64,000 nucleotides of DNA from the NCBI RefSeq assembly GCF_017348835.2, contig NZ_CP071375.1; one strand, 5' to 3'. The number at the start of each line of letters is the position of its first letter. Within the stretch, counting starts at the first letter, position 1. Source of the stretch: Escherichia coli (GTDB lineage: Bacteria > Pseudomonadota > Gammaproteobacteria > Enterobacterales > Enterobacteriaceae). Below the pieces are notes generated by a model. The model saw only the letters and a program-made list of their open reading frames with translations. It searched no databases and was not told the origin of the DNA. Both the position numbers and the translations under genes were made by a program. Positions 56,111 through 58,298 of this stretch are shown here, one piece after another.

Positions 56111-57040
56111 ATGACCGAATCAACAACCTCCTCCCCGCATGATGCAGTATTTAAAACCTTTATGTTCACACCCGAAACCGCACGGGATTTTCTCGAAATA
56201 CATTTACCAGAACCACTGCGCAAGCTTTGCAACCTGCAAACCTTACGCCTGGAACCCACTAGTTTTATTGAAAAAAGTTTACGCGCTTACTACTCGGATG
56301 TTTTGTGGTCCGTGGAAACCAGCGACGGTGACGGCTATATCTACTGCGTGATTGAACATCAAAGCTCTGCAGAAAAGAATATGGCTTTTCGGCTAATGCG
56401 CTATGCCACTGCCGCCATGCAGCGTCACCTGGACAAAGGCTATGACAGAGTCCCGCTGGTGGTGCCGTTGCTGTTTTATCATGGCGAAACCTCGCCCTAC
56501 CCGTACTCACTCAACTGGCTGGATGAGTTTGACGGTCCGCAACTTGCCCGGCAGTTGTACACCGAAGCTTTTCCGTTGGTGGATATCACCATCGTACCTG
56601 ACGATGAGATCATGCAACATCGGCGTATAGCTCTGCTTGAACTGATTCAAAAGCATATTCGCGACCGCGATTTAATCGGTATGGTCGACAGGATCACCAC
56701 GCTTTTGGTTAGAGGCTTCACTAATGACAGCCAGCTACAAACACTGTTTAATTATCTGCTGCAATGCGGCGATACCTCCCGTTTCACCCGTTTTATTCAG
56801 GAGATTGCCGAACGTTCACCACTACAAAAGGAGAGATTAATGACTATTGCTGAACGGCTGAGGCAGGAAGGGCATCAAATTGGCTGGCAGGAAGGTAAAT
56901 TAGAAGGTTTGCAGCAAGGCATGCATGAACAAGCCATTAAAATTGCCTTGCGCATGCTGGAGCAGGGTATCGATCTTGACCTGGTGCTGGCAACAACCCA
57001 GCTAACCGAGGCCGATCTCGCTCCATTAAGCCTGCAATGA
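56111..57040 (+). CDS. yfaD: Rpn-family (PD-(D/E)XK, transposase_31-like) recombination-promoting nuclease
   Basis: 309 aa, [33 protein letters not shown]...; position after glpC as in K-12. Confidence 0.75.
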
Positions 57041-57086
57041 ATGCGACAACGTGCCGGGTAAAAGCCTTCTCCCCGGCGCGCCTCTT

Positions 57087-58298
57087 TCATGCCCCCTGTG
57101 GCGACAGCATCAACGACTCAACAACCTCAATCCAGCCATGCTCACTGGCAATGTCCTGGCCGTTTAACCAACGGCGTAGCATATTCAGTGCCATCATTGC
57201 GCACACTTCCTGACGGATAGCCAGGCTATAGCGTGTAGTGCTGAAACGCACACGCAGAGCGAAAGTGCCATCTGGCGTGGCTAGCGCAAAGTTGAGATGC
57301 TCGTTCTCGAAACCCGAAACAGCCAGTGCCAGCCCGGCAAAATGGTTGGCCCGCCGTTCTGTAATCCAGTGCGCAGTTTGCGCCAGGGTTTCTTCCTGTG
57401 AAGGAACCACTTCACACGCCAGCAATGGAGCACCTGCGCGAGAAAGTTGCAAAGCCAATAAACCACCGGTGAATTGCTCGCTCAACGTCAGGCTGAACTG
57501 GCGGTTTTGCAATTCGCGACTGATTTGCGCGGGCAGTCCTTCGGTGCCTTCGAAAATCACGCTCTGTCCGGCAACACGTTTAACGTCCAGCCACAGTTTT
57601 TCCATCGCCTGTTGCTCGCTTGCCGGTCCGGTGAGTTTCAGTTCGATGATCGGCATTGAGGAGCGATAGCCCATTGTTACGCCCGGCGGCAGTTGTAGAG
57701 TGTCCAGGCTTTGTGCCAGATCGCTTTCCGAACGACCAAAGGTAGTCAAACGCAGGCAAACCGGCGGCTGTGGTAAAGAAAAACGCTCGCGCAGGCGCGG
57801 CAGGATTTCGTGCTCGACCATCACCTTAAATTCTGACGGTACGCCGGGGGTAAAGAACATCAGGCAACGATTAAGCTGCACGGCAAAACCACAGGCGGTG
57901 CCTACCGGGTTATTGATAAATTCAGCACTGGCAGGAAGCTCCGCTTGTTTACGGTTGCTCGGTGCCATTACTCGTCCACGTTCGTGGAAATAGCGTTCCA
58001 TCTCTTTGAGCCAGGCTTCATGCAACACCAGGCCTTCACCTTTTGCTGTCGCAGCGGCGAGTGCGCTTAAATCATCGCTGGTCGGTCCCAGCCCGCCGTT
58101 AACGATCAGCACATCGGCGTGCTGACTACGTTCGCGAAGAATGGTGACTAAGTCATCAAGGTTATCCCCCACCGTATTGCGGCGAGATAATGGCAACCCC
58201 TGATGAAAGAAAAAATCGGCCAGCCAGGCAGCGTTAGTGTCAACGATTTGCCCGTGTAACACTTCATCCCCGGTGGATAGCATTTCCACTTTTAACAT
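57087..58298 (-). CDS. yfaY: CinA-like competence/damage-inducible protein (NMN amidohydrolase family)
   Basis: 403 aa, MLKVEMLSTGDEVLHGQIVDTNAAWLADFF... (MoCF-binding domain) plus CinA C-terminal domain. Confidence 0.8.
   Translation of the reverse strand: MLKVEMLSTGDEVLHGQIVDTNAAWLADFFFHQGLPLSRRNTVGDNLDDLVTILRERSQHADVLIVNGGLGPTSDDLSALAAATAKGEGLVLHEAWLKEMERYFHERGRVMAPSNRKQAELPASAEFINNPVGTACGFAVQLNRCLMFFTPGVPSEFKVMVEHEILPRLRERFSLPQPPVCLRLTTFGRSESDLAQSLDTLQLPPGVTMGYRSSMPIIELKLTGPASEQQAMEKLWLDVKRVAGQSVIFEGTEGLPAQISRELQNRQFSLTLSEQFTGGLLALQLSRAGAPLLACEVVPSQEETLAQTAHWITERRANHFAGLALAVSGFENEHLNFALATPDGTFALRVRFSTTRYSLAIRQEVCAMMALNMLRRWLNGQDIASEHGWIEVVESLMLSPQGA

Follow-up and report, generated by a model that had tools for sequence, protein, structure and literature searches.

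A rare rpnE-yfaY junction without the L-rhamnonate operon in Escherichia coli, very probably the scar of a single old deletion

Among the known systems close to the locus studied here are the Rpn proteins and their gene-within-gene antitoxins. Kingston et al. 2017 (PMC5350276) reported that RpnA to RpnD raise RecA-independent recombination, are toxic and induce the SOS response, whereas RpnE does none of these. Zhong et al. 2023 (PMC10400941) showed that within rpn genes lies a further gene, whose small C-terminal product RpnS blocks the long toxic protein, and that the number of four-residue repeats in the Rpn C-terminal domain varies among strains. According to the same work, ypaA is a second RpnE-S copy (rpnE-Ss) and the gene-within-gene is expressed in K-12 (PMC10400941). 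RpnE itself is not known to have any activity or defence function. In the present study, we analysed a stretch of 64,000 nucleotides from E. coli (RefSeq assembly GCF_017348835.2, contig NZ_CP071375.1), called the window throughout, in which rpnE (yfaD) stands directly beside yfaY and the L-rhamnonate operon rhmA-rhmT-rhmD-rhmR is missing. RhmD is said to dehydrate L-rhamnonate and RhmA to cleave the 2-keto-3-deoxy product to pyruvate and L-lactaldehyde, and RhmT and RhmR are reportedly a transporter and an IclR-type regulator. We consider it highly probable that the whole operon was lost in one old event, an illegitimate (homology-independent) deletion of about 4.4 kb, and that the junction is its scar.

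The junction and its parent haplotype

An earlier note on this DNA had described yfaD and yfaY as convergent genes 46 bp apart and had placed ypaA and the L-rhamnonate genes between them in K-12. Both statements held. In the window the two stop codons face each other across the short spacer (Table 1). In K-12 MG1655 the rpnE stop lies at 2357803 and the yfaY stop at 2362431, and the 4,627 bp between them hold ypaA (a pseudogene), yfaU/rhmA, yfaV/rhmT, rhmD and yfaX/rhmR, so that K-12 does not share the direct adjacency. The identities of both genes were confirmed by profile scores above the cut-offs: the rpnE product scored 715.4 bits against the NCBIfam equivalog NF007418 (cut-off 583, residues 1-305 of 309) and was also matched by TIGR01784, and YfaY gave a full-length match of 807.9 bits to NF002978 (cut-off 496) and is 99.5% identical to K-12 YfaY across 399 residues by tblastn. 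PF04754 and HTH_Rpn_C (PF27070) are recorded for the 309-residue rpnE product at the same position in other junction-bearing assemblies. The gene lies directly downstream of glpC (55918 to 56111), in the order found in K-12. The absence of the rhm genes was likewise as the earlier note had claimed; neither tblastn nor blastn found any sequence of the rhmA-rhmT-rhmD-rhmR operon in the 64-kb window (0 matches).

By blastn, homology to K-12 runs at 99.0% identity up to position 56897, within rpnE, and resumes at 98.5% from 57115, within yfaY. Between these points, 56898-57018 is just 84-86% identical to the K-12 rpnE tail and to ypaA alike, these two being tandem copies 89% identical to each other, and 57019-57114 has no K-12 counterpart in the alignment. 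YfaY differs in kind from its K-12 homologue only in the last 9 residues.

The parent haplotype was recognized in E. coli O157:H7 TR01. When a 151-nucleotide (nt) query spanning the junction was compared with 5426 complete E. coli genomes, 10 of them matched, nine with the junction and TR01 through the left 66 nt. TR01 has the RpnE tail of the window, its RpnE protein being identical to that of the junction carrier XJ34, together with the same 10 nt beyond the rpnE stop (ATGCGACAAC) and exactly the YfaY protein of the window (WP_001625541.1), and it retains yfaU/rhmA, yfaV/rhmT (split by the insertion sequence (IS) IS1203), rhmD and yfaX/rhmR between rpnE and yfaY. The variant yfaY 3' end, which among the complete genomes is confined to TR01 and the nine carriers, predates the deletion. 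This rare allele of the yfaY 3' end and terminator substitutes 38 bp, TR01 12760-12790 (in the numbering of its locus, L087) standing against K-12 8397-8450 (in the numbering of the K-12 locus, L001). A small inversion was considered for this 38-bp difference, and neither direct nor reverse-complement alignment was convincing; the two were treated as diverged alleles.

Base by base, the window follows TR01 as far as 57050 (L087 7066) and is collinear with it again either from 57076 or already from 57051 (L087 12760), at the GTGCCGG that forms the left arm of the yfaY terminator hairpin as in K-12. The junction is flush. TR01 reads …CGACAAC/ACAGCC… on the left and …GGGAAT/GTGCCGG… on the right with at most 2 nt shared, and alignment with TR01 revealed no repeat, IS end, attachment-site (att)-like site or microhomology of 3 nt or more at 57050/57051. 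The interval missing relative to TR01 measures 5,693 bp, or about 4.38 kb excluding the IS, and corresponds in K-12 to about L001 4008-8396 (about 2,358,007-2,362,395). With no IS end, direct repeat or att-like site and with a parent collinear on both sides, the junction has the features of a simple illegitimate deletion, apart from 15-20 nt in the hairpin that differ from TR01. A genomic island or mobile element is not indicated, as the annotations of K-12 and TR01 show rhm genes only (plus the secondary IS1203 in TR01) between rpnE and yfaY; in the comparison of species representatives, the rhm block does not move with rpnE.

Whether the operon had been deleted here or inserted in K-12 was left undecided by the earlier note, from one sequence; the alignments now favour deletion here. 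The window's haplotype occurs with rhm in TR01, rhm-less Escherichia retain remnants of the operon, and rhm lies between rpnE and yfaY in E. albertii and in a divergent 'E. coli' lineage (L035), its interior (K-12 L001 4505-8367) being present in 4172 of the 5426 complete E. coli genomes (77%); rhm is therefore ancestral and was removed here. The starting point was a rare haplotype that already had the variant yfaY 3' end and only one copy of the RpnE tail, without a separate ypaA. The cut runs from 10 nt past the stop codon of rpnE to the base at which the yfaY terminator hairpin begins, and the underlying event was presumably illegitimate, either break-and-join or replication slippage. It removed rhmA/yfaU, rhmT/yfaV, rhmD and rhmR/yfaX and left both flanking genes intact with one GC-rich hairpin between them. 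This 9-bp hairpin may now serve both convergent transcripts. For the + strand its RNA fold has an energy of -19.4 kcal/mol with z -2.2, and for the - strand one of -21.5 with z -1.7; a simple terminator scan did not call it, the loop being longer than 8 nt and the T-run weak; it is probably a shared transcription stop for the two genes, to be regarded as putative.

Several points weigh against this reading. Just one rhm-positive representative of the parent haplotype, TR01, was found, and no second one with an intact hairpin appeared among the 5426 genomes or in scans of Joint Genome Institute (JGI) metagenomes. The hairpin of the carriers differs from that of TR01 by the absence of TGCA and by 15 additional nt (AGCCTTCTCCCCGGC); these nt form the right arm of the 9-bp stem, which the TR01 hairpin does not have, and the complete hairpin of the carriers reads …GTAAAAGCCTTCTCCCCGGCGCGCC…. 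On the simplest reading, the common ancestor would have had the full hairpin and TR01 would have lost the 15 nt afterwards. The exact right breakpoint depends on assuming this later loss, and filler DNA added at the join may instead have supplied the 15-20 nt. A source elsewhere for the junction-specific bases (57051-57075) was not detected: the matches that blastn-short returned for the K-12 locus were at most 11 nt long and at chance level, a word-11 search with E up to 10 returned only the nine carriers among the 5426 genomes, a comparison with 80 species representatives gave 0 matches, and exact-pattern scans of JGI metagenome contigs for the hairpin and for the variant yfaY 3' end gave 0 matches each. 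Furthermore, the absence of rhm elsewhere in the window's own genome is supported indirectly, by the counts given below, and the loss of L-rhamnonate catabolism, and of nothing else, would be the expected consequence as far as the sequence can tell.

Import of the divergent core (about 56898-57114) by recombination from a rhm-less Escherichia or other enteric lineage is very unlikely, although some observations speak for it. The core is 84-86% identical to K-12 or unalignable between flanks of 98.5-99%, the yfaY ending ESLML… is nearer to the ESLTL… of other genera than to the Escherichia ESMTLSV, and the GCCGGG/CCCGGC hairpin resembles Enterobacter-type yfaY terminators. However, the divergent rpnE tail and yfaY end flank the rhm block in TR01 and do not form one contiguous tract, and the divergence of the RpnE tail is typical of a hypervariable domain. 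In addition, no donor-like sequence was found in the 80 species representatives, the 5426 E. coli genomes or the JGI metagenomes.

Table 1. Features of the rpnE-yfaY region in the window
Feature	Position	Strand	Details
glpC	54728..55918	+	left neighbour, conserved; tblastn with K-12 GlpC 99.7% identity over 396 aa; PE164 annotation concurs
rpnE (yfaD)	56111..57040	+	309 aa, Rpn/YhgA-like PD-(D/E)XK family protein
RpnE-S internal in-frame open reading frame	56841..57040	+	66 aa; AAGGAG 7 nt upstream of ATG; AAAAGGAGAGATTAATGACT
RpnE tail repeats: two four-residue units (KLEG LQQG) more than in K-12 RpnE	56898..56921	+	
Spacer rpnE/yfaY	57041..57086		46 bp separating the facing stop codons of the convergent genes
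Deletion junction	57050..57051		left, post-rpnE sequence of TR01 (…TGAATGCGACAAC); right, start of the yfaY terminator region (GTGCCGG…)
GC-rich hairpin	57050..57080		9-bp stem 57050-57058/57072-57080, 13-nt loop
yfaY	57087..58298	-	CinA-family protein related to nicotinamide mononucleotide deamidase, 403 aa
Variant yfaY 3' end	57087..57114	-	…ESLMLSPQGA-stop against …ESMTLSV-stop in K-12; YfaY 403 against 400 aa
yfaZ	58398..58940	-	right neighbour, conserved; tblastn 99.4% identity; PE164 annotation concurs

Carriers of the junction and other losses of the operon

The junction has a single origin. Exactly 9 of the 5426 complete genomes contain a 41-mer spanning it, with no further occurrence in the set, and every carrier examined has the same junction string, most with a 47-bp spacer owing to an additional C at 57082-57083. 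Of the complete genomes, PE164 and F2_81 match the junction at 100% and seven others are near-identical there, and it recurs in independent NCBI/ENA draft and metagenome assemblies that were found via the exact YfaY protein. In a large assembly collection this exact 403-residue protein occurs in 650 blocks; among the matches listed, 9 of 10 places have the direct junction and TR01 alone has rhm. Divergence of different carriers from the window stays at about 1% per kb to the very edge of the junction, as high as for K-12, and no low-divergence tract of the kind left by recent recombinational spread was seen around it. The nearest non-identical genomes over 24 kb (98.2-98.4%) comprise both carriers and rhm-positive strains of phylogroup-E type (O157:H7, O55:H7). 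Given this flank divergence of about 1% among carriers, the allele is therefore old or present in several backgrounds, and not a recent clonal accident. The exact scar can be used as a lineage marker, carried by about 0.2% of complete E. coli genomes.

Where the rhm interior is present in complete E. coli genomes, it is always chromosomal, in at most 2 places per genome, and no copy was found on a plasmid in the 5426 genomes. Another deletion in E. coli is far commoner (1239 genomes, 22.8%) and fuses K-12 L001 4504 with 8368 across a 2-nt GG overlap; it leaves a 462-nt rhmA 3' pseudogene beside yfaY and a normal 400-residue YfaY. The two compact loci together (1239 + 9) account for 1248 genomes, against 1254 that lack the rhm interior; genomes without rhm at the locus therefore lack it altogether, within six genomes. 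In other strains IS1, IS1203 and ISEc46 are inserted in rhmT and further partial deletions occur, which show an ongoing decay of the rhm genes.

Losses were also found outside E. coli. Remnants of rhmA, rhmD or rhmR persist in three rhm-less Escherichia, whose endpoints all differ: MOD1-EC7003 keeps the rhmA 3' part to K-12 4145 and two rhmD pieces and resumes at 8145, E1V33 joins K-12 4243 to 8059, and E. whittamii joins 4254 to 8064. Raoultella planticola has its own 4.2-kb rhm deletion, with about 230 bp downstream of yfaY retained and no rpnE at the locus. The glpC-yfaY interval was surveyed in the 80 species representatives with YfaY as anchor, and four states were seen. In the first, glpC adjoins yfaY (Enterobacter, Leclercia, Lelliottia, Kluyvera, Buttiauxella, Kosakonia); in the second, rhm alone lies between them (Klebsiella, R. 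ornithinolytica, several Citrobacter, Phytobacter); the third has glpC-rpnE-rhm-yfaY (E. coli, E. albertii, C. braakii, C. sedlakii); and the fourth, glpC-rpnE-yfaY, is that of the window, C. werkmanii, C. youngae, C. portucalensis and S. enterica diarizonae (L023). The Citrobacter species (loci L011-L031) show all four states. In the rhm-less Citrobacter, rpnE and yfaY are about 48 bp apart with a GGGAAGG…CCTTCCC hairpin, an architecture like that of the window, and no similarity of spacer sequence was detectable.

This survey is also where the reverse history finds its arguments, namely that the window keeps the original rpnE-yfaY adjacency and that K-12 and most E. coli gained rhm by insertion. 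The operon is absent from many genera in which glpC adjoins yfaY (Enterobacter, Kluyvera, Buttiauxella, Leclercia), several Citrobacter and S. enterica diarizonae have the roughly 48-bp arrangement, as in the window, and the presence of rhm is probably derived somewhere deep in the Enterobacteriaceae. Within Escherichia, however, an ancestral empty site is hardly probable. All lineages of the genus have rhm or remnants of it, TR01 combines the rare haplotype of the window with an rhm block whose flanks are collinear with K-12, and homologous re-insertion would require crossovers within stretches of 10 nt and 12 nt; furthermore, the window spacer has no detectable similarity to the Citrobacter junctions. 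The window allele is one of at least 6 independent rhm losses at this locus in Enterobacteriaceae, and the old deletion remains our preferred account of it.

Taken together, at least 5 independent deletions in Escherichia and another in Raoultella, the patchy presence of rhm in Citrobacter and several IS hits have a further possible meaning. The operon may have been lost too often for neutrality, either because L-rhamnonate catabolism or RhmT/RhmD expression is counter-selected in some host-associated niches or because the hypervariable rpnE tail raises local breakage. We regard this as unlikely; if it were true, the glpC-yfaY interval would be a genuine hotspot of adaptive gene loss.

The RpnE tail, ypaA and the Rpn nuclease

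The window rpnE has the sequence features of a gene-within-gene antitoxin (RpnS), an internal start with its own ribosome-binding site and a tract of four-residue repeats. The 66-residue RpnE-S of the window aligns with both K-12 RpnE-S and YpaA. There is a single copy here against a second copy (ypaA) in K-12, and in the window strain RpnE-S would be expected to be expressed. The window RpnE ends in …APLSLQ and has 309 residues, compared with 299 in K-12. In the region 56865-56921, extra four-residue (xxEG-like) units number 0 in K-12 and S10, 2 in the window, 4 in XJ34 and TR01 and 5 in D6, a comparison that drew on loci L003, L004, L005 and L087 and agrees with the variable repeat number found by Zhong et al. 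2023. RpnE is frameshifted in the junction carrier 2018-05-2CC.

The earlier note had counted ypaA as part of the same missing block, and this was not borne out. A separate ypaA, with the rpnE stop followed by the ypaA start as in the K-12-type tandem, is present in 3133 of the 5426 complete genomes, and the rhm-positive TR01 also has a single tail without ypaA, yfaU beginning 38 nt later. Since TR01 has rhm and no ypaA, the absence of ypaA predates the rhm deletion and is independent of it. For annotation, the two absences are to be treated as separate polymorphisms. Similarly, the label 'ISNCY family transposase' given to rpnE by the Prokaryotic Genome Annotation Pipeline (PGAP) is no evidence that a mobile element caused the change.

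The earlier note had also suggested that the Rpn-type nuclease may mark a recombination-prone site. In its stronger form, this would mean that the nuclease cut beside its own gene and caused deletions, perhaps repeatedly. In its favour, overexpressed RpnA to RpnD damage DNA and promote RecA-independent recombination (PMC5350276), the left endpoints of the five Escherichia deletions lie at most 0.5 kb from rpnE, and the rpnE 3' end is itself hypervariable. Nevertheless, K-12 RpnE is the sole paralogue inactive in the recombination, toxicity and SOS assays (PMC5350276), and RefSeq labels it 'inactive'. The proximity of the endpoints is uninformative, as a deletion cannot take out the operon and leave its neighbours whole without ending near rpnE and yfaY. 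Repeat slippage and duplication, with selection acting on the antitoxin domain, account for the variable rpnE tail (PMC10400941). In addition, the junction has neither repeats nor microhomology of 3 nt or more, and R. planticola lost rhm with no rpnE at the locus. A causal part of RpnE is thus scarcely credible, and the suggestion is not supported; the locus is structurally variable in the ordinary manner of a dispensable operon. Finally, an assembly or scaffolding artefact that collapsed the region is refuted: the nine complete genomes with the identical junction come from different laboratories, hosts and countries, and other independent assemblies have it too.

Surrounding genes, meaning and comparison with known systems

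The gene order of the window is rcsC, ato, yfaP/Q/S, a decayed prophage, yfaA, gyrA, ubiG, yfaL, nrdAB, inaA, glpQT, glpABC, rpnE, yfaY, yfaZ, nudI, ais and arnBCA. The pig isolates E. coli PE164 and F2_81 are 100% identical to it over 24 kb (40000-64000), and PE164 is 100% identical over 1-16822 and 99.96% elsewhere. PE164 has an additional 1.3-kb IS3-family copy at window 19638-19640, within a prophage tail-fibre gene, which the window lacks; the window thus belongs to another, near-identical strain or isolate.

Several other features of the window were observed. At 3064-5008, where PE164 is 100% identical, its annotation gives an atoS without the C-terminus abutting at a single point, near 4481-4482, an atoC remnant without the N-terminus (labelled 'helix-turn-helix domain-containing protein'). 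This arrangement suggests an internal deletion, which we estimate at roughly 1.3 kb from K-12 gene lengths; it would inactivate the AtoSC two-component system, with atoDAEB remaining. The gene yfaS (alpha-2-macroglobulin family, 11555-16069) is a pseudogene with an internal stop in the annotation of the identical PE164 sequence. A decayed lambdoid prophage occupies about 15800-30000 in the yfaT (DUF1175)/yfaA region, where the DUF1175 gene is split, and holds integrase, ninE/ninG, antiterminator, holin, truncated lysozyme, lom and tail-fibre genes. It also carries the type III effector genes nleA and one member of the nleG family, and the GC content falls to 37-46%; these effectors point to a possible attaching-and-effacing pathotype (like enteropathogenic or Shiga toxin-producing E. 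coli, EPEC/STEC). In gyrA (32410-35037, - strand) the quinolone-resistance-determining residues S83 and D87 are wild-type. The nrdA-nrdB intergenic region (42771-42948) has a unit of about 90 bp in two adjacent copies, about 93% identical, which surfaced as off-diagonal matches in the alignment of the window with PE164. In the glpQ-inaA gap (about 47500-49000), PE164 annotates a LysR-family regulator, a divergent major facilitator superfamily (MFS) transporter and a frameshifted hypothetical gene.

The state of the window is an ordinary presence/absence polymorphism of an accessory catabolic operon; the observation stands, without being unusual. Annotated public genomes already include the exact allele, and events of this type are commonplace; our literature search found no relevant published description of the rhm polymorphism. 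The only mildly notable points are the rarity of the scar (9 of 5426), its independence from the common one (1239 of 5426) and the repeated loss of the operon at this locus. The rhm operon belongs to the variable genome, being absent from 23% of complete E. coli via two separate deletions, and the window strain is predicted to be unable to use L-rhamnonate.

Compared with the Rpn gene-within-gene systems (PMC10400941), the window rpnE shares the internal start, the Shine-Dalgarno sequence and the four-residue repeat tract, and its missing rpnE-Ss (ypaA) is a described state, 'lost through deletion … or fusion'. That work covers the rpnE tail only and is silent on the rhm operon. With the K-12 MG1655 locus the window shares collinear flanks that are 98.5-99% identical, and the first 243 residues of RpnE differ at 4 positions; K-12 has of its own the 4.6-kb intervening block, the tandem second RpnE tail (ypaA) and a YfaY ending in ESMTLSV, and its RpnE, unlike that of the window, is without the extra four-residue repeats. 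Internal deletions in the cryptic-clade Escherichia and in Raoultella planticola have removed this operon from between these neighbours as well, but with endpoints of their own and with 0.2-0.8 kb of rhm remnants, and the Raoultella locus is without rpnE. The common deletion allele (in, for example, strains D6 and S10) resembles the window in that, at the same locus, the operon is lost by a simple illegitimate deletion that keeps the flanking genes, and there too no rhm copy is present elsewhere. It is nevertheless independent, with endpoints at 4504/8368 against about 4007/8397 here, and it is about 140 times commoner.

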